Shown: piece by piece, positions 11,672 to 23,161 of the stretch | Layout: the number at the start of each line of letters is the position of its first letter | Position numbering within the stretch: position 1 is the stretch's first letter | Source of the DNA: Neisseria sp. | Lineage (GTDB): Bacteria > Pseudomonadota > Gammaproteobacteria > Burkholderiales > Neisseriaceae | NCBI RefSeq assembly: GCF_030527965.1 | Contig: NZ_JAUMZU010000001.1 | Span: 86,141 to 150,140, forward strand | Direction of reading: 5' to 3' | Length of the DNA stretch: 64,000 nucleotides | Translations under genes and position numbers: made by a program | Notes under the pieces: model-generated | What the model saw: only the letters and a program-made list of their open reading frames with translations | Told to the model about the DNA's origin: nothing | The model's database searches: none

Positions 11672-11701
11672 CCTGTCTGAAACACAGTTTTCAGACAGGC
11701 T
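11672..11701. terminator. DUS inverted pair hairpin after metW
   Basis: gcctgtctgaa acacagt ttcagacaggc. Confidence 0.6.
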
Positions 11702-11875
11702 TTATTTGGTTTTAATGTCCTTTTCGGATAATTGTTTAAAGCATGGTAAAAAGAAAGTAATTTTTTAATGATGGGATTTTCGCAAAGCTTTGCAGGCTGC
11801 GGGATTTATTGGCATAATGCTTCGGGTCTGGATAGGCGGATTTTACCCTTGTCTAAATTAATCGGAGACATATAA

Positions 11876-12118
11876 ATGATGAAAAATCTATTGATTGCCG
11901 CAACCTTGTTAACTCTTGCTGCATGCTCTAACACTTGGCACGGAGCTAAAGAAGACAGCCAAAGTCTGAAAGATCGTGGAGAACAAAGCTTGGAACGCGG
12001 AGGCGAAGCAGTTGAAAAAGGTTGGGACAAAACCAAAGATTTAGGGCGTACCGCCGTGGATAAAACCGGCCGTGCCTTAGAAAAAAGCGGCCAATATCTG
12101 CAAGAAAAGGCAGAATAA
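11876..12118 (+). CDS. Small lipoprotein (lipobox LAAC), CsbD/stress-protein-like KG-rich repeats
   Basis: MMKNLLIAATLLTLAACS signal peptidase II site; RBS cggaga; 80 aa. Confidence 0.55.
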   Translation: MMKNLLIAATLLTLAACSNTWHGAKEDSQSLKDRGEQSLERGGEAVEKGWDKTKDLGRTAVDKTGRALEKSGQYLQEKAE

Positions 12119-12350
12119 ACGCTTTATCCAATTAATCGGTTTCAATCAAAAGCCTGTCTGAAAATATTTAAGACAGGTTTTTTATAATCATTTGATTTTT
12201 AAATAAGAGCAATGTCTGCACAACCAGTCTGTTTGAAGGGCTAGCCTAGTTTTCCACGAAGTTGATTGAAGAATACGGAACAGAGTGTAAAGTAACTGCA
12301 TAAGATGAATATTAGCTTAGGCTATATAAATAATAAATAGAGGTAATATT

Positions 12351-12635
12351 ATGATAACTGTTGAGATAGTTAATACCATTTTTGGTCTTGTGGCTCTTGC
12401 CAACTCTGTTTTGGCCGGTATTATTCTTATTTTAAAAATGATGATTGGTAAATATTTAACAGAATATGAAAAGTTGACAGGATATCATGAGGGCTTTGAC
12501 AGATTAGTAAGAGAGAAAAATCGAACAGCTCTAATAATGAATATGTTCATTAAGTTATGGATGGTAACGATGTTGATTATGGGAGCATATGCATTGTTTT
12601 ACAAACCAGTGGTTGAATCAATTCAAGCGGGATGA
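12351..12635 (+). CDS. Hypothetical small membrane protein (2 predicted TM) in AT-rich islet
   Basis: 94 aa; region 12150-12900 markedly AT-rich relative to flanks; RBS agaggtaa. Confidence 0.4.
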   Translation: MITVEIVNTIFGLVALANSVLAGIILILKMMIGKYLTEYEKLTGYHEGFDRLVREKNRTALIMNMFIKLWMVTMLIMGAYALFYKPVVESIQAG

Positions 12636-12828
12636 ATGTAAATAGGATTTATAAATAAAATTATATAAAGTAGCAAATTATATTGATGGTGCGGATTTTT
12701 AAAATAGGAAAACTCAGACTTTTAATAAAGCACAATTATTTTAATGATATTATCAACCATATCTTTGTTCATTTTTCTGCGCCTACCTAAAAGAGGAATA
12801 ATCAAAAACCGCGAAAAATCCGAGATAA

Positions 12829-12860
12829 AAAAGGTGCTGCCAAATGGGAAGCACCTTTTT
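12829..12860. terminator. Bidirectional intrinsic terminator hairpin (aaaggtgct...agcaccttt) with A/T runs
   Basis: Stem aaaggtgct/agcaccttt, T-run downstream on both strands; 20 bp past lipoprotein gene stop (minus). Confidence 0.5.
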
Positions 12861-12878
12861 CTATTGATTTTTAAAATT

Positions 12879-13520
12879 TTAATGCAGCTCACGAATATCG
12901 TGCCAACCATTGTTGGTTTTGACCATGGTGGCGGTGTATTCTTGCGGTTCGGTCAGCTGTTTCTCAAAGTTTTCATTCGATTTCAGCAGTTTTTTCATCC
13001 ATTTTTCCGGTACCAATTCTGCTTGGTAGGATACTTTTGATACGGTCATGCCGTTTGACGGGGTCGGCTCGGTAAACCAGTTGATTTTTTTCACTTTCAG
13101 GCTGCCTGTGCATACCACCGGGCCTTGAGAATTGAAACGCAACATAGCGGCGCCTTTTTCGGTAAGCTGATAGCTTACGGTTTTTATTTCGGTGTCGCCT
13201 TGCTCTACGGATTTTTTATCTGCTTTGCGATAAATGCCTGCGTCGGTCAGAATTTCCATTTGTTCCATGGCTTCTTTATTAATGCGTTTACCTTCTGAAT
13301 TGCGGTCGGCAATAGACAGTTTAGGCTCGCCGACGAGGTTGTTACGCACCGGCTGGCCGGCAACATCTAAAATGGCGAGCGGCAGAGGCGTACATACGCC
13401 TTGCTCGGCGGCAAAGCTTTCGATGCCGTCTTTCAGGGCGGATTCGCTCGCTTGGTTTTCGTTGCCCGAGCAGGCAGCGAGCAAAAACACGGGTAGGGCG
13501 GCTAAAAGGGTTTTTTTCAT
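12879..13520 (-). CDS. Hypothetical lipoprotein
   Basis: MKKTLLAALPVFLLAACSG lipobox at ATG 13520 with RBS ggaga; track TTG-extended start 13583 rejected. Confidence 0.7.
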   Translation of the reverse strand: MKKTLLAALPVFLLAACSGNENQASESALKDGIESFAAEQGVCTPLPLAILDVAGQPVRNNLVGEPKLSIADRNSEGKRINKEAMEQMEILTDAGIYRKADKKSVEQGDTEIKTVSYQLTEKGAAMLRFNSQGPVVCTGSLKVKKINWFTEPTPSNGMTVSKVSYQAELVPEKWMKKLLKSNENFEKQLTEPQEYTATMVKTNNGWHDIRELH

Positions 13521-13633
13521 GCATTTCTCCGGAAAATTTTTCAATTCAGGCGTAAGAATAGTTTTTTTGGCCGCTTTCGACAAGGTTTTTTGCTACAATC
13601 GATTTTTTGTAAACACATATTTAAAGATATTTT

Positions 13634-17304: not shown

Positions 17305-17310
17305 TTGGTC

Positions 17311-17565
17311 AGTTTATAATCAGGCTGTCTGAAAGCCTCGAACAGCGTGATTATCCATTCGTAAAGAAAGAACCTTTATGAAACCCTTTACTTCCCTTCT
17401 AACCGCCGCCTTATTATCCGCCGCCAGCCTGAGCGCCTGCGGCGGGTCGGAGAAACATATGAGCATTCAAGAGCAGACTGAAAAACGTTTCCAACTCAAT
17501 CCTCACCCTACAAAAGCCTACCGCATTAAAATCAAAATAAATGATGCGCCCGGGCCTTTGAAACT
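17311..17565 (+). repeat. Direct repeat copy 1 (~255 bp, ~94% identical to 18139-18393): promoter/5'UTR + first ~62 codons of lipoprotein gene
   Basis: By-eye alignment of the two segments; includes variant DUS caggctgtctgaaa. Confidence 0.8.
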
Positions 17566-18079
17566 TGTCAGTTCAAGGATTCAATATATAGCAGACAATT
17601 GTTCATACATTATTAACAATGTGGAAGGTGCAAGCGCTAATCCTGAAAAATTCATAAATGTTGAATTTCAACAAACTACTTTAAATGAATATAAAGCCAT
17701 AATTTATTTAGATAGAATGCAAAATGAAGATTATTTCGGAACAGGAATTTGTCAATGGAAAGCAGGTGGATTCAATCTAGGTTTCCAAGCCACAGGCAAA
17801 CCAGAAGAAACTACTTTTTCAATAGGGGGAATTCTAGATAGTTCTCTACTTGTAGATGAAAGAAGTAAAAAAAACTCTCTTTTATTCAAACTAACTGAAA
17901 CTAGATTCTACTGGAAAAAAGGATATCCATATTATAGAAATGAAGATGGTTCAATATACGAAAGCAACACTATGGCCGACTCTGGCATACAATCTGAATC
18001 ACTAAATAAATATTATACTGACCAACAACGTAAAAATTTATTCAATATAACTGTTACTCTTGAGGAAATGAAGTCATGA
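17378..18079 (+). CDS. Lipoprotein paralog 1; candidate immunity protein
   Basis: MKPFTSLLTAALLSAASLSACGG lipobox; C-terminal domain homologous but diverged from paralog 2 (shared DEDYFG.G.C.W, GYPYYRN-DGS-Y motifs); C-terminal 500 nt very AT-rich. Confidence 0.7.
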   Translation: MKPFTSLLTAALLSAASLSACGGSEKHMSIQEQTEKRFQLNPHPTKAYRIKIKINDAPGPLKLVSSRIQYIADNCSYIINNVEGASANPEKFINVEFQQTTLNEYKAIIYLDRMQNEDYFGTGICQWKAGGFNLGFQATGKPEETTFSIGGILDSSLLVDERSKKNSLLFKLTETRFYWKKGYPYYRNEDGSIYESNTMADSGIQSESLNKYYTDQQRKNLFNITVTLEEMKS

Positions 18080-18138
18080 CTACAAGACAACAAAATGCTC
18101 GCTTCCTATCAAAAGCCTTATTTATCGAACGGATTGAT

Positions 18139-18393
18139 AATCAGGCTGTCTGAAAATCTCGAATAGCGTGATTATCCATTCGTAAAGAAAGAGCCTTTAT
18201 GAAACCCTTTACTTCCCTTCTAACCGCAGCCTTATTATCCGCCGCTAGCCTAAGCGCCTGCGGCGGGTCGGAGAACCGTATGAGCATTCAAGAGCAGACT
18301 GAAAAGCGTTTCCAACTCAATCCACACCCCACAAAAGCCTACCGCATTAAAATCAAAATCAACGATGCACCCGGGCCTTTGAAGCCAGTAGGA
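18139..18393 (+). repeat. Direct repeat copy 2 (see 17311-17565)
   Basis: Near-identical 5' module of lipoprotein paralog 2. Confidence 0.8.
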
Positions 18394-18855
18394 AAGATGT
18401 CTGTAGGTTATATCGCTGAAAATTGCTCATATACTATTGCTAAGTTTGCCGGAGCAAAGGCTAAACCTGAAAAAGATGTTTATACCGAAGTCAAACAGAT
18501 AGGGGCAGATGAATATGAAAGTACCATTTATCTTGATGCCATGCGAGATGAAGATTATTTTGGGCAAGGAGTATGCCACTGGCAGGCATATAGTTTTGCT
18601 GTAGGATTTAAAGCGACGGGAAAGCCAAATGAAACAAACTTTGGGATAGGAGAAATTTTAGAAGAGATTTTATCTAAGAAGACTCGAACAATATATTTTT
18701 GGAAAAGAGGTTACCCTTACTATAGAAATGATGATGGTTCCGTCTATAACAAGGATGATATGTATGACTCTGGATATGATTCTTTAAACGATTACATTGC
18801 TCAAAGACGTAATGAATTATTTACGATGACTGTTCAAATTGAGGAGATTGAATAA
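18199..18855 (+). CDS. Lipoprotein paralog 2; candidate immunity protein, translationally coupled to lipase gene
   Basis: Same signal peptide/lipobox; stop TAA overlaps ATG of next gene (TAATG) with GAGGAG RBS inside its 3' end. Confidence 0.75.
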   Translation: MKPFTSLLTAALLSAASLSACGGSENRMSIQEQTEKRFQLNPHPTKAYRIKIKINDAPGPLKPVGKMSVGYIAENCSYTIAKFAGAKAKPEKDVYTEVKQIGADEYESTIYLDAMRDEDYFGQGVCHWQAYSFAVGFKATGKPNETNFGIGEILEEILSKKTRTIYFWKRGYPYYRNDDGSVYNKDDMYDSGYDSLNDYIAQRRNELFTMTVQIEEIE

Positions 18856-20204
18856 TGTCCCAGCTAAATAGACAACAATACGCAGATCTTTCAGAAGATT
18901 CTTATGAAAAAAGAAATGCTGATGAACATAAAAAAATTCTTATTGGCAAGCATTATTATAAAGTTCTTGCTACTTGGGGTAATCCTAAGACAGATTATCA
19001 GGGTGCTGTTTATCAAGATGTCGAAACCAATACTATTGTCGCAGCACATAGAGGAACGGAATCGCTTAAAGATGGAATAATTGACCTGAAAATGGTGTTT
19101 CAACAGGTTAACAGTCAGTTGGAAGATGCAACCACACTAACACTGATGGCTTTAAGAAAAGCAGAGGAGTTTCATAAAAAGCGTCCTGATATGCCCAAAC
19201 CCAAAGTAGAGCAAACCGGTCATTCACTAGGCGGTTCTCATACCGAAATACAGGTTCATCTTTTTGAAGAAAAAGGGATTTTGATGGAAGGGGTAACCTT
19301 TAACGGTTACGGAGCGGCAGGCCTTCACGGCGTTCCCGAAAAAGACAATGGTCGATTAACGGCTTATGTGAAGGCTTCCGATGTAGTATCCGCTGCAAAC
19401 CCCCATTACGGCAGAGTGGTGGTGTTGGCTACAGAGAAAGACCTCGCTCCGTTGAAAGCATACGGCTATAACAATGAGCGCGATACTCCGACACCTACGG
19501 CAATCAGCGCCAGCTTGACCAATACATTGCCAGCCCACGGGATAAAAAATTTTACCGGCTCCGATTCAATCCTATCCCGACTCAACTACCGTCATGCCCG
19601 CTCACTGGCGGACGATAATGAAAAGATGATTCAAGATTTTCGCAGTGATATAAAAGCCCTCAAAAACGGCCTCTCTCATGGCGTTAATGAAGCCAATAAA
19701 GCTTACGACATCATGCGCTCTATCCCCACTTCTTCTGAAATATTTATGCGGGAAATCCAGAAAAGCGTTATTCCGCCATTGATGGAAAATAACACCCAAA
19801 CCGCCCCTGCATTGGGCCTCGCCGATATGCCTGAAAAGGCACGGCAACTTTGCGAAGAGTGTAAGACGCATCTAGTTGATTTTCATAAAGGAAAAAACAT
19901 TGCTGTCAGTGAAGACAAGCTGGATAGAATGGCGGCTGCGGCCGGTGTGCAGGCTTATCGGGAAGGCTTTCCGGGTATTCAGGCGCTTGCCATTCATGAT
20001 GGCGAAGTCAGATTCGGATACCGCTATCCTCACGAGCAGGCACTTTACGGTTTGGTAAACGCCACCCAAGCAGCCGCGACACCGGTTGAAGAAAGCGTGG
20101 TTCAATCAAGGCAGGCAGAGCAGGAATTGGCACAGAAGGCGCAACAACGTGAAATGGCAATGGCCGAATACCATTCGCAATCGCGCGGGAGAAGTATTTC
20201 TTAG
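18855..20204 (+). CDS. Class-3 lipase (alpha/beta hydrolase, GHSLGG nucleophile elbow) without signal peptide; candidate secreted phospholipase effector (Tle/X-Tfe-like)
   Basis: AAHRGTE ... (58 aa) ... GHSLGGS matches lipase_3 RGT/GHSLGG spacing; no Sec/Tat signal; Q/A-rich C-terminal tail. Confidence 0.7.
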   Translation: MSQLNRQQYADLSEDSYEKRNADEHKKILIGKHYYKVLATWGNPKTDYQGAVYQDVETNTIVAAHRGTESLKDGIIDLKMVFQQVNSQLEDATTLTLMALRKAEEFHKKRPDMPKPKVEQTGHSLGGSHTEIQVHLFEEKGILMEGVTFNGYGAAGLHGVPEKDNGRLTAYVKASDVVSAANPHYGRVVVLATEKDLAPLKAYGYNNERDTPTPTAISASLTNTLPAHGIKNFTGSDSILSRLNYRHARSLADDNEKMIQDFRSDIKALKNGLSHGVNEANKAYDIMRSIPTSSEIFMREIQKSVIPPLMENNTQTAPALGLADMPEKARQLCEECKTHLVDFHKGKNIAVSEDKLDRMAAAAGVQAYREGFPGIQALAIHDGEVRFGYRYPHEQALYGLVNATQAAATPVEESVVQSRQAEQELAQKAQQREMAMAEYHSQSRGRSIS

Positions 20205-20235
20205 ATCGGTTATCGGTTGGAAACATTATTAATGA

Positions 20236-20261
20236 TGCCTGTCTGAAAATATTCAGGCAGG
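20236..20261. terminator. DUS (variant) inverted pair hairpin after lipase gene
   Basis: gcctgtctgaa aata ttcaggcaggc (second half is gcctgcctgaa variant). Confidence 0.55.
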
Positions 20262-20299
20262 CTATTATCTAGTCTTAATTTATCAAACAATAAAATATT

Positions 20300-22003
20300 A
20301 TGAGCACCCGTAATCAATTTATTATGACCATAATCATGCTGCTGGCAGCTGTTGTTGCCGGCTGCTATCTTTCGGGCTTTATTTTGCTGCAATGGCTGGG
20401 ATTGAACAACACACCGTTAGGGTTAACCACTTATTTCCAATATTTCAGCAAGCTGCATCTCCCGCGGGTTGCCGCTTATGCTTTACAAATTAAAACGTCA
20501 GGTGCCGTCGGCTTTGGTTTGCCTTTGCTGCTCTGGCTGATTCTGCTGATTCCGTTGTGGAAAAACCGGGCACCCAGCTTGCACGGCGAGGCGCGTTTTT
20601 CCAATCTTGTCGATTTGACTAAGGCAGGCTTTTTGAAACAAAGCGACACCAGCCTTGTGGTAGGCAAGCAAAACGGCAAATTGCTGTATTACAACGGCCA
20701 GCAGTTTGCTCTTCTGGCAGCACCGACCCGTTCGGGGAAGGGCGTGGGGATTGTGGTGCCTAATTTATTGCATTATCAAGGTTCGGTTGTTGTGTTGGAT
20801 ATTAAACAGGAAAACTTCAATCTGACCAGCGGCTACCGCAAAGAAGTGTTGAGGCAGGAAGTTTACCTGTTTAATCCGTTTGCCGAAGACGGGCGCACCC
20901 ATCGCTGGAACCCGTTTACCTATGTTTCAAAGGATAAAAACCAGCGCATATCGGATTTGATGTCGATTGCGGCGATGCTGTATCCGGACGGAGACAGTAA
21001 AGACAAGTTTTGGGTGGCTCAGGCAAGAAATGCGTTTTTGGCTTTTTCGCTTTATTTGTTTGAAGAGTATGAGCACAGGAAAGGCTTCATTCCTGAGCTA
21101 AATCAATCGACTAATGGTACGGCTCCTTGCACCTTAGGCAAGCTTTACCGGCTTTCATCCGGCAATGGCGAAGAATTGAAAAATTACTTCCAAGAGCTGG
21201 CTCAAGCAGAATTTCTAAGCGAAGCCTGTAAAACTGCTTTTTCGGGGCTGGTTTCTCAAGAGAAAGAAACTTTCGGCTCTATCATGGGTACATTCAAAGA
21301 GCCGTTGAATCCTTGGCTTAACCCTCTGGTTGATGCAGCCACTTCGGCAGACGATTTTTTCTTGACCGATGTCCGCAAAAAGAAAATGACCGTCTACATC
21401 GGTATTTTGCCGAACAAACTGGCTGAATCAAGGGTAATCGTTAACTTGTTTTTCTCCCAGCTGATTAACCAAAACACCAAACAACTTCCGCAAGACAATC
21501 CTGCTCTGAAGCACCAATGTCTGTTGCTGATGGACGAATTTACCAGCATCGGTAGGGTGGACATCATTGCCCATGCCGTGAGCTATATGGCAGGCTATAA
21601 CATCCGATTATTTCCGATTATTCAATCGGTTGCGCAACTGGATGCGGTTTACGGCAAAGAATATGCCCGCACCATCATTACCAACCACGCCTTGCAGATA
21701 CTGTATACCCCGCGAGAGCAGCAGGATGCGAACGAATACTCAGAAATGCTGGGCTATACGACGGTTCGGAAACAGAACGTGAGCAAAGGGCGGGAGCGCA
21801 GCGTATCGGAGAGTGAAGAGAGAAGAGCGCTGATGCTGCCGCAGGAATTGAAGGCAATGAGCCAAGATAACGAGATTATGATTTACGAGGGGATGGCATA
21901 CCCTGCTAAGGTTGGTAAGATTCGTTATTACAATGATAAAACGTTTACTTCGAGGTTGAGGAAAGCGGTGATGGTAAAATCGTTGGCGGTGAGTAAAGAA
22001 TAA
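20300..22003 (+). CDS. virD4: Type IV secretion coupling protein, VirD4/TraG family
   Basis: 567 aa; two N-terminal TM helices; P-loop LLAAPTRSGKGVGIVVPNLL; Walker B CLLLMDEFTSIG; IIQSVAQLDAVYG motif; all characteristic of T4CPs. Confidence 0.85.
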   Translation: MSTRNQFIMTIIMLLAAVVAGCYLSGFILLQWLGLNNTPLGLTTYFQYFSKLHLPRVAAYALQIKTSGAVGFGLPLLLWLILLIPLWKNRAPSLHGEARFSNLVDLTKAGFLKQSDTSLVVGKQNGKLLYYNGQQFALLAAPTRSGKGVGIVVPNLLHYQGSVVVLDIKQENFNLTSGYRKEVLRQEVYLFNPFAEDGRTHRWNPFTYVSKDKNQRISDLMSIAAMLYPDGDSKDKFWVAQARNAFLAFSLYLFEEYEHRKGFIPELNQSTNGTAPCTLGKLYRLSSGNGEELKNYFQELAQAEFLSEACKTAFSGLVSQEKETFGSIMGTFKEPLNPWLNPLVDAATSADDFFLTDVRKKKMTVYIGILPNKLAESRVIVNLFFSQLINQNTKQLPQDNPALKHQCLLLMDEFTSIGRVDIIAHAVSYMAGYNIRLFPIIQSVAQLDAVYGKEYARTIITNHALQILYTPREQQDANEYSEMLGYTTVRKQNVSKGRERSVSESEERRALMLPQELKAMSQDNEIMIYEGMAYPAKVGKIRYYNDKTFTSRLRKAVMVKSLAVSKE

Positions 22004-22077
22004 TTGAGCACAATAATAGAAAATTGCCACATGATCCGTCAAACCGATTTTTGTTAATTGAATAACGCTGTAAAAAA

Positions 22078-22103
22078 GCCTGCCTGAAAATATTCAGGCA
22101 GGC
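22078..22103. terminator. Variant-DUS (gcctgcctgaa) perfect inverted pair hairpin between virD4-like gene and purM (convergent)
   Basis: gcctgcctgaa aata ttcaggcaggc + T-run. Confidence 0.6.
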
Positions 22104-22123
22104 TTTCTTATTATTAAAAATGA

Positions 22124-23161
22124 TTACGCTATTTGCGTTTGATGCTCGTCGCCGATGCGCTCGCGGATTGTGCCCAAGCGGTAAACCGTTTCGCCTTGTC
22201 CTGCTAAAAATGCTTGCAAGGCGTCGGCTTCTTCTGCTGATGCAATCAGCACCATGCCGATGCCGCAGTTGAAGGTGCGGTACATTTCTTGCGGCGCTAC
22301 GTTGCCGGCTTCTTGCAGCCAACGGAACAATTTGGGCAATGCCCATGCGCCGGCGTCGATTTGTGCAACGGTGTTTTGCGGTAAAACACGCGGTACGTTT
22401 TCGGTGATGCCGCCGCCGGTGATGTGTGCCATGCCTTTGATGGTAAATTGTTTCAACGCGGCCAGAATGGGTTTCACATAAAGGCGTGTGGGGGCGATGA
22501 CGGCTTGGCGCAGAGTTTTGTTGCCGTCAAACGGGGCGTCTAAATCGGGGTTGTCACGCTCGAGAATTTTGCGTATCAGAGAATAGCCGTTGGAGTGGGC
22601 GCCGTTGGAAGCCAAGCCGAGCACGATATCGCCGGCGGCGATGCTGCGGCCGTTGATGACTTTGTCTTTTTCCACCACGCCTACGGCGAAGCCTGCCAAA
22701 TCATATTCGCCTTCGGGATACATGCCGGGCATTTCGGCGGTTTCACCGCCGATTAGGGCGCAAGCGGAAGCTTCGCAACCTTGCGCGATGCCTTTGATTA
22801 CATCGGTGGCACGCGCTACATCGAGCTTGCCGCAGGCAAAATAATCCAAGAAAAATAACGGCTCTGCGCCTTGTACCAGGATGTCGTTCACACTCATGGC
22901 AACGAGGTCGATGCCGACGGTGTCGTGCAAGTCCCAATCAAAGGCCAGTTTTAATTTGGTGCCAACGCCGTCGGTGCCGCTGACCAGCACGGGATTTTGG
23001 TATTTTTTGCTGATTTCCACCAAGGCGCCGAAGCCGCCTAAGTCGCCCAGCACTTCGGGGCGCATGGTGCGTTTGGCAAACGGTTTGATGTTTTCGACCA
23101 ATTGGTCGCCGGCATCGATATCGACTCCGGCATCGCGGTAGCTCAGGGATGGGTTGCTCAT
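22124..23161 (-). CDS. purM: Phosphoribosylformylglycinamidine cyclo-ligase PurM
   Basis: 345 aa; canonical AIR synthase sequence ([19 protein letters not shown]-like) throughout. Confidence 0.95.

Follow-up and report, generated by a model that had tools for sequence, protein, structure and literature searches.

A lipase effector/immunity islet with an additional virD4 gene in an uncultured Neisseria, a probable module of a Xanthomonadales-like type IV secretion system

We analyzed a window of 64,000 nucleotides (nt) from a metagenome bin (MAG) of Neisseria sp. and find that a small islet of four genes in it is, with a probability of about 0.85, an effector/immunity module of a bacteria-killing Xanthomonadales-like type IV secretion system (X-T4SS), with a further copy of the coupling protein alongside. 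The source MAG is not a closed genome. The islet is made up of four open reading frames (ORFs) on the + strand that encode lipoprotein 1, lipoprotein 2, a lipase and VirD4. Their accessions are MDO4640174-177, with locus tags from Q4A84_00495 on, and the contig that carries them is 201 kb long. As an earlier note on this DNA had described, the four genes lie on the same strand between an ABC transporter (an ABC-2 transporter ATPase and permease, upstream) and the convergent purM (downstream, 22124-23161, - strand), and the motifs that it quoted (AAHRGTE, GHSLGGS, APTRSGKG, LLLMDEF and IIQSVAQL..YG) are all found in the translations. Its proposal of a lipase effector/immunity module, in the T4SS reading of the two that it offered, is supported by the profile and fold of an XVIPCD in the lipase, by synteny with virB/virD4 loci, and by machine genes in the MAG. 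Coordinates are given in Table 1.

In the 449-amino-acid (aa) lipase, a predicted class-3 lipase domain (Ser124-Asp176-His228) at the N-terminus is joined through a flexible linker to a predicted XVIPCD at the C-terminus. In an AlphaFold model built from a 47-sequence alignment (pLDDT 86), a hydrolase domain (aa 1-275) is followed by a disordered linker and a C-terminal module (aa ~325-443). The motifs from which a lipase_3 domain had been called are present. However, the window sequence scores below the Pfam threshold for Lipase_3 (13.5 bits), and the assignment depends instead on homologs, invariant residues and fold. The homologs P0003 and P0094 exceed the threshold. G122-H-S124-L-G-G127, D176 and H228 are invariant in 47 homologs, and S124, D176 and H228 fit a Ser-Asp-His triad. 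A Foldseek search with the model finds fungal class-3 lipases (E about 1e-6). Among the homologs are a protein at NCBI with the identical sequence ('MAG: lipase [Neisseria sp.]') and, at 39-45% identity, about 80 clusters of oral Neisseria; farther homologs in Dyella, Lysobacter, Rhodanobacter and Variovorax carry PF20410.

Profile matches, fold and tail identify the lipase, at the level of profile and fold, as a divergent effector of the X-T4SS type (X-Tfe). PF20410 matches aa 339-418 when the whole protein is used (E = 3.7e-4, 21.5 bits), and the C-terminal 135 aa alone reach 24.3 bits, the gathering cut-off being 24.9 bits. Five of ten Neisseria homolog C-termini match PF20410 at E < 0.01. 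Comparison by hhalign of ten Neisseria C-termini with twelve from Xanthomonadales and Variovorax gave a probability of 97.8% (E = 1e-12, 118 columns), with about 22% identity of the Neisseria C-termini to Xanthomonadales XVIPCDs in the alignment. The profile of the Neisseria C-termini matches the C-terminal domain of PDB 7r6s (E = 5.6e-6), which is TfcB, an experimentally validated X-T4SS effector of S. maltophilia, and also 9p3h (E = 1e-4). With a profile made from Xanthomonadales and Variovorax sequences only, the lipase is the sole XVIPCD ORF of the window (E = 7e-7). The modelled module (pLDDT mostly >90) has helices at 327-347 and 353-369, strands at 377-381, 384-390 and 396-402, and a tail helix at 411-443, which is an alpha-alpha-beta-beta-beta plus tail topology, as reported for XVIPCDs, and TfcB is at rank 4 in the Foldseek search of the lipase model. 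The tail, QSRQAEQELAQKAQQREMAMAEYHSQSRGRSIS, is Gln-rich and ends in SRGRSIS. XAC2609 ends in SRSMSM, and these last six residues are needed for translocation (Oka 2022); the residues of XAC2609 that contact VirD4 are Asp363, Phe375, Val377 and Asp383-Pro384. The C-terminal XVIPCD with a Gln-rich tail is therefore positive at the profile and fold level, though under the Pfam cut-off. The C-terminus of an RTX-type effector encoded in Neisseria vir loci matches that of the lipase, indicating that the XVIPCD is a shared, portable module, and NCBI names one oral Neisseria lipase homolog 'XVIPCD domain-containing protein'.

Another protein of the same MAG appears to be a mosaic. P0002 (Q4A84_10410; 307 aa) and the window lipase have 100% identity over aa 144-323 and agree in most of the tail, but the XVIPCD core of P0002 differs throughout from that of the window lipase and matches P0077 (90%). 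This pattern suggests recombination that swapped the VirD4-binding part.

The nature of the C-terminus and the setting of its homologs also bear on a different mode of delivery. The earlier note had offered as an alternative that the lipase is a Tle phospholipase of a type VI secretion system (T6SS) with tandem Tli lipoproteins, the T6SS being encoded elsewhere; virD4 would then be an unrelated neighbor. Tle/Tli arrays of T6SSs, and the orphan immunity and effector-stub arrays of contact-dependent inhibition (CDI), Rhs and T6SS loci, follow the same logic, with a periplasm-acting lipase, lipoprotein immunity proteins, tandem immunity paralogs and effector remnants, and a signal-less lipase with upstream lipoprotein paralogs has a general resemblance to them. 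In contrast to Tle/Tli systems, however, the delivery signal and the genomic associations in the window are those of a T4SS (XVIPCD, VirD4, virB). The C-terminus carries the signal that VirD4 reads, an XVIPCD, in a form shared with other effectors in T4SS loci. Homologs of the lipase are found inside virB/virD4 loci, and every homologous locus that we looked at has a link to virB/virD4. In the window, where this check covered the flanking genes and the large ORFs but not the rest of the genome, no T6SS component (vgrG, hcp, PAAR or any other) came to light. We find no support for delivery by a T6SS and regard it as scarcely credible.

The genes of the islet have their counterparts in vir loci of human-oral Neisseria, in which the order is virB4-3-2-1 / 154-aa lipoprotein (VirB7-like)-virB8-9-10-virD4-(RTX-type XVIPCD effector)-virB11-222-aa lipoprotein-lipase. 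Compared with these loci, identity is 79% for VirD4, 53% for lipoprotein 2 and 46% for lipoprotein 1 (both against the lipoprotein upstream of the lipase in L001), 39% for the lipase, and 89% for purM, which in one oral Neisseria contig lies 5 kb beyond the lipase. L001 has a 154-aa lipoprotein upstream of a 300-aa VirB8, where the criteria for an X-T4SS are a VirB7 of 130-185 aa with an N0 domain and a VirB8 of 290-370 aa that is extended at the C-terminus; this comparison applies to the related Neisseria loci only. X-T4SSs with lipase X-Tfes and lipoprotein immunity proteins (X-Tfis) have been listed for about a dozen Neisseria and Morococcus genomes, and Lipase3 and DUF2974 effectors with upstream, co-transcribed lipoprotein immunity genes were described (Sgro et al. 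2019, PMC6536674); the islet agrees, one feature after another, with what is given there for X-Tfe/X-Tfi pairs. The islet resembles these catalogued loci (those of N. flavescens SK114, N. mucosa C102 and N. subflava, among others) in that VirD4 is of the same clade, a lipoprotein-lipase pair is present, the XVIPCD-type C-terminus is common to several effectors, and vir genes are in several segments. In contrast, the effector/immunity pair and virD4 of the window are away from any virB gene, the order is immunity-immunity-effector-virD4, the dialect of the DNA uptake sequence (DUS) is another one (GCCTGTCTGAA), and the species is known as an uncultured MAG.

Similar comparisons can be made with Xanthomonadales. 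Like the pairs of X. citri and S. maltophilia (XAC2609/XAC2610, the lipase TfcA, TfcB), the window lipase has a variable N-terminal toxin part and a C-terminal XVIPCD with a Gln-rich tail, and there is an upstream, co-transcribed immunity gene with a signal peptide, a lipobox and a possible internal start. The XVIPCDs of Neisseria depart from these: they have diverged (to about 22% identity with the Xanthomonadales consensus), score just under the Pfam cut-off, and have no evident Asp-His-Val motif. XVIPCD lipases of Lysobacter are preceded, with a 4-nt overlap, by homologous lipoproteins of 214-218 aa (E about 1e-13, being 1e-13 for lipoprotein 1 and 5e-13 for lipoprotein 2) that share an EDYFG-G-C-W motif. 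The Lysobacter lipases (P0094 of L. hankyongensis and P0090 of a Lysobacter MAG) are 31-38% identical to the window lipase over the aligned parts, the gene overlap is the same 4 nt, and, as in Neisseria, the cassettes are scattered among housekeeping genes. In contrast to the window, the Lysobacter copies pass the PF20410 threshold (44.7 bits) and have a single immunity gene and no adjacent virD4. The lipoprotein-lipase pairs of Lysobacter and Neisseria indicate an old, conserved effector/immunity cassette that is common to Xanthomonadales and Neisseriaceae.

X-Tfis are encoded immediately upstream of the effector gene and co-transcribed with it, and have a signal peptide and lipobox where the effector acts in the periplasm. 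Both lipoproteins of the islet have a signal peptide and, as the earlier note stated for these paralogs, the lipobox LSAC|GG; in a sample of 65 members of the family, at least 90% retain its Cys21. Lipoprotein 2 is also upstream of the lipase gene and joined to it by a stop/start overlap: the lipase ATG overlaps the lipoprotein 2 stop codon (TAATG), with GAGGAG inside lipoprotein 2, just as had been observed before. Junctions of the TAATG type are also present in Neisseria (L001) and Lysobacter (L040/L042). The lipoprotein family comprises 395 representative clusters and is without a Pfam model; the predicted structure is a beta-sandwich (pLDDT 92.7) with no close relative among solved structures. 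Both lipoprotein genes also contain an in-frame ATG at Met28 (17459-17461 and 18280-18282), seven codons past the lipobox Cys and preceded by GGAG at 6 nt. Alternative internal starts in X-Tfis of X. citri have been proposed to yield a cytosolic form of the immunity protein (Sgro et al. 2019, PMC6536674).

Lipoprotein 1 is probably an orphan immunity gene followed by the stub of a lost lipase gene. The two lipoproteins are 65% identical overall and almost the same across aa 1-62, because the 5' ends of their genes lie in a direct repeat of 250 nt (94% identical). Directly after lipoprotein 1, and overlapping its stop codon, is ATGACTACAAGACAACAAAATGC, which encodes MTTRQQNA and matches the N-terminus (MTTKQQNA) of P0003, a lipase of the same MAG. 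After 24 nt, the sequence passes into the duplicated 5' module of lipoprotein 2. Units of a lipoprotein and a lipase 5' stub also form arrays on both sides of the virD4 of Neisseria sp. CCUG12390, which is the pattern of displaced effector genes that leave immunity genes behind.

The main vir locus of CCUG12390, a complete genome, is itself a large effector/immunity array arranged around virD4 (L016:6075-16158). Three tandem lipoprotein paralogs and a lipase precede virD4, which is followed by two lipoprotein + lipase-5'-stub units, a lipoprotein, a lipase, and then virB11.

The last gene of the islet was described previously as a VirD4/TraG-type coupling protein 95 bp past the lipase, and the domain, Walker motifs and N-terminal hydrophobic segments of such a protein are all there. 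It matches Pfam T4SS-DNA_transf (PF02534) with 370.8 bits (cut-off 20.1) over profile positions 4-461 of 468, and also TraG-D_C and TrwB_AAD_bind. APTRSGKG and LLLMDEF are Walker A and B, and two hydrophobic segments are at the N-terminus. The nearest relatives are VirD4s of Neisseria X-T4SSs (78-81%), followed by those of Kingella, Formosimonas and Lysobacter (59%); the source species is not among the GTDB representative genomes that we scanned with VirD4, where the best match was 81%. The gene is not the lone orphan that had been supposed. It is an additional copy, and the same MAG encodes a second, partial VirD4 (MDO4640703, P0122) on another contig, of 121,645 bp. This protein consists of the N-terminal 203 aa and ends at the contig edge; it is 93% identical to the window VirD4 overall, with one difference from residue 45 on.

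Stand-alone virD4 genes next to effector and immunity genes recur in other Neisseria. In one locus (L005) the order is ftsEX-murA-virD4-two small ORFs-lipoprotein-XVIPCD effector-metG, and in another (L037) it is argG-...-two tandem lipoprotein-like paralogs-XVIPCD effector-DUS hairpin-virD4. The latter is the layout of the window with a different toxin. The isolate N. flavescens CNF has both a main virB/virD4 locus (L011) and a separate virD4 with an effector/immunity pair (L005). Main and separate copies of virD4 are 88% identical, and the differences are concentrated at residues 1-120 and 241-270; judged by position relative to Walker A, residues 241-270 probably lie where the all-alpha domain is expected. 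Two separate copies, when compared, give a ratio of nonsynonymous to synonymous substitution rates (dN/dS) of 0.041, and two main copies give 0.044 (<=0.1; most pairs are saturated in dS and only close pairs are reliable). These low values indicate that the separate virD4 copies are maintained genes.

Intactness and selection likewise speak to the suggestion of a decayed conjugative or integrative element, of which virD4 would be all that is left, without a functional tie to the lipase. The islet is low in GC and has variant DUSs, as could be expected of such a remnant, and no relaxase, virB, integrase or phage gene is in the window, in agreement with the earlier note. VirB1-4, VirB8-11 and VirB5/6-like ORFs of related loci gave no tblastn match in the 64 kb, and both the genes that flank the islet and the ten largest of the remaining ORFs have housekeeping roles. 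However, VirD4 is full-length with Walker A and B, its dN/dS is low, and it is closest to VirD4s of antibacterial X-T4SSs rather than to conjugative TraG/TraD. Furthermore, the arrangement is found repeatedly: effector-hairpin-virD4 recurs in L037 and virD4-immunity-effector in L005. A decayed element is thus very unlikely, and we reject it, like the T6SS, on the strength of the XVIPCD, synteny, intactness and selection.

The presence of two coupling proteins could pose a new question, namely how effectors are sorted between them. XVIPCD types group by lineage and not by whether the neighboring virD4 is a main or a stand-alone copy. The idea that each XVIPCD class has a coupling protein of its own is neither borne out nor refuted. 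Adjacency of an effector gene and a downstream virD4 may extend to Burkholderiales: in a Formosimonas sp. MAG (L012:92-1603), an ORF that the Neisseria XVIPCD profile matches weakly (E = 8e-4) is just upstream of a 66%-identical virD4.

The earlier note placed the delivery machine elsewhere in the genome, and this fits what we found on another contig of the MAG. A VirB9 search identified P0149 (MDO4640701, 'MAG: Neisseria sp.') on the same 121,645-bp contig as the partial VirD4, and a contig of the public sequencing run SRR24915844 carries virB8'-virB9-virB10', with virB8 and virB10 as fragments. Because of this VirB9, the partial VirD4 and the virB8'-9-10' contig, a virB/virD4 locus very probably exists in the window organism, and the window virD4 is its second copy. 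The MAG also encodes more XVIPCD proteins, namely P0002, P0077 and two 432-aa lipases (P0003 and P0246).

Several points weigh against an active X-T4SS module. Lipase activity, toxicity, immunity and secretion are all things that we infer. The lipase falls just short of the PF20410 gathering score, and the Neisseria sequences show no evident counterpart of the Asp-His-Val ('IDHV') motif that Xanthomonadales XVIPCDs have. From the machine of the window organism we saw only VirB9 and fragmentary VirB8 and VirB10, with VirB1-7 and VirB11 outside this check. The same submission includes a MAG labelled 'Cardiobacteriaceae' to which a >90% identical VirB9 (P0245, MDO4643952) was assigned, which indicates that binning is imperfect, and the contig with virB9 and the partial virD4 could belong to a co-occurring strain. 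Lastly, a literature search found no experimentally tested X-T4SS of Neisseria.

Some of these points would fit a defensive or left-over islet, in which the virB contig comes from another strain, immunity has been kept, and the effector and virD4 are without a channel. The sequence comes from a MAG, and binning put a near-identical VirB9 in a different taxon. The one-residue difference between the two VirD4s over aa 45-203, at a contig edge, fits strain variants as well as it fits paralogs, and lipoprotein 1, with the effector stub behind it, already looks like an orphan. On the other hand, the arrangement of two loci is present in an isolate genome, that of N. flavescens CNF (L005, L011), the lipase and virD4 of the window are intact, and stand-alone virD4 is under purifying selection elsewhere. 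The virB9 contig is also 121 kb long and is thereby linked to much other sequence of the bin. We consider a left-over islet unlikely, and favor an effector/immunity module that is served by an X-T4SS of the same organism.

Work on the X-T4SSs of X. citri and S. maltophilia (Sgro 2019; Oka 2022) suggests how such a module might function. In the producing cell, the beta-sheet of the XVIPCD would bind the all-alpha domain of VirD4, and VirD4 would hand the lipase to the VirB channel. The channel would then inject the lipase, on contact, into neighboring Gram-negative cells, where membrane phospholipids would be hydrolyzed. Lipoprotein 2, as the putative cognate immunity protein, would be translationally coupled to the lipase, exported, and lipidated at Cys21, and could neutralize periplasmic lipase that arrives through leakage or from sister cells. 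Use of the internal start at Met28, with its own GGAG, might also give a cytosolic form of lipoprotein 2. Lipoprotein 1, as an orphan paralog left after the loss of its own lipase, probably guards against a different lipase allele. For the second, maintained virD4, the simplest reading would be extra coupling capacity for locally encoded effectors.

As for novelty, little weight attaches to the suggestion that such a system had not been described in this lineage: a catalog of 2019 already lists X-T4SSs of Neisseria and Morococcus, with their lipase effectors and lipoprotein immunity proteins (Sgro et al. 2019), and the name 'XVIPCD domain-containing protein' is in use at NCBI for a homolog. 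Modestly new, in our view, are two points: a second virD4 that recurs next to effector/immunity cassettes and is under selection, and a probable orphan immunity gene followed by an effector stub. A literature search found no paper on an orphan or duplicated VirD4 of an X-T4SS. To our knowledge, X-T4SSs have been tested as contact-dependent antibacterial weapons only in Xanthomonas, Stenotrophomonas and Lysobacter, and those of Neisseria are known from genome surveys only. The islet adds an annotated X-T4SS example in a little-known Neisseria lineage and otherwise agrees with existing knowledge. Its genes are concrete candidates for cloning in work on competition within the oral and mucosal microbiota.

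Table 1. Features of the islet, in window coordinates.
Feature	Position	Strand	Remarks
5' module, copy 1	17313..17562	+	65 nt upstream, including DUS-like CAGGCTGTCTGAA, and first 185 nt of lipoprotein gene 1
Lipoprotein 1 (Q4A84_00495), X-Tfi-family paralog	17378..18079	+	233 aa
Effector-gene stub, MTTRQQNA	18077..18100	+	8 codons; ATG overlaps lipoprotein 1 stop
5' module, copy 2	18134..18383	+	upstream region and start of lipoprotein gene 2; direct repeat
Lipoprotein 2 (Q4A84_00500), putative cognate X-Tfi of the lipase	18199..18855	+	218 aa
Lipase gene, whole	18855-20204	+	449 aa, signal-less
Toxin part of lipase, predicted class-3 lipase / alpha-beta hydrolase domain	18855..19679	+	aa 1-275; no signal peptide
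Secretion part of lipase, predicted XVIPCD domain	19827..20204	+	aa ~325-449; Gln-rich tail ending SRGRSIS
DUS hairpin, terminator-like	20237..20262		one canonical and one variant arm; between lipase and virD4, in 95-nt gap
virD4, intact type IV coupling protein, X-T4SS clade	20300..22003	+	567 aa; second copy in MAG
DUS hairpin, terminator-like	22075..22106		both arms GCCTGCCTGAA; common to convergent virD4 and purM

The GC content of the islet is below that of its flanks, as had been noted. It is 0.36 in lipoprotein 1, 0.40 in lipoprotein 2, 0.44 in the N-terminal part of the lipase and 0.47 in virD4, compared with 0.49 for the whole window and 0.56 for purM. A promoter scan was uninformative, with fewer sigma-70-like sites than in shuffled controls.

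The host uptake sequence GCCTGTCTGAA occurs in 60 copies in the window, far above chance, and the dialect is A[T/A]GCCTGTCTGAA; GCCGTCTGAA is absent from the whole window. This dialect presumably resembles the TG-wadDUS of Frye et al. 2013. The variant GCCTGCCTGAA, also far above chance, has four copies in the window, three of them inside the islet. A third variant, CAGGCTGTCTGAA, forms two elements upstream of the lipoprotein genes and occurs nowhere else. Thus the variant DUS hairpins that had been reported at the islet are there as GCCTGCCTGAA, whereas the elements upstream of the lipoprotein genes are CAGGCTGTCTGAA.

virD4 is flanked on both sides by 34-nt palindromic DUS-hairpin elements (20230-20263 and 22071-22104, 88% identical). 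These carry the rare GCCTGCCTGAA arm and hold three of its four copies in the window. The pair could mark virD4 as a cassette that was acquired or moved by transformation and recombination; alternatively, the elements could be duplicated terminators only.

Two other entries among the related sequences are probably also mis-binned. A Neisseria X-T4SS locus (L017, CAUUHT010000006.1) is filed under 'Candidatus Nanosyncoccus nanoralicus', and it encodes proteins that share 95-100% identity with their counterparts in L001, a locus of oral Neisseria. The lipase homolog P0034 is filed under 'uncultured Haemophilus sp.'.

In N. flavescens CD-NF3 and CNF (L009:14613-14763 and L011:14167-14317), virB11 has a frameshift in a poly-A tract that lies shortly upstream of the codons for Walker A. 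The tract is A7 in these two strains and A8 in intact copies (L017, L001, L002), and it is interrupted in L006 and L016. The X-T4SS ATPase could be phase-variable, or the frameshift could be a sequencing error in a homopolymer.

Finally, the window contains a second patch of low GC content at 11700-13600 (0.29-0.35 around 12000-13000) in which there are small ORFs only. The ORF at 11876-12118 encodes a lipoprotein of 80 aa, that at 12351-12635 a membrane protein of 94 aa, and that at 12879-13583 (- strand) a lipoprotein of 234 aa without a Pfam match.

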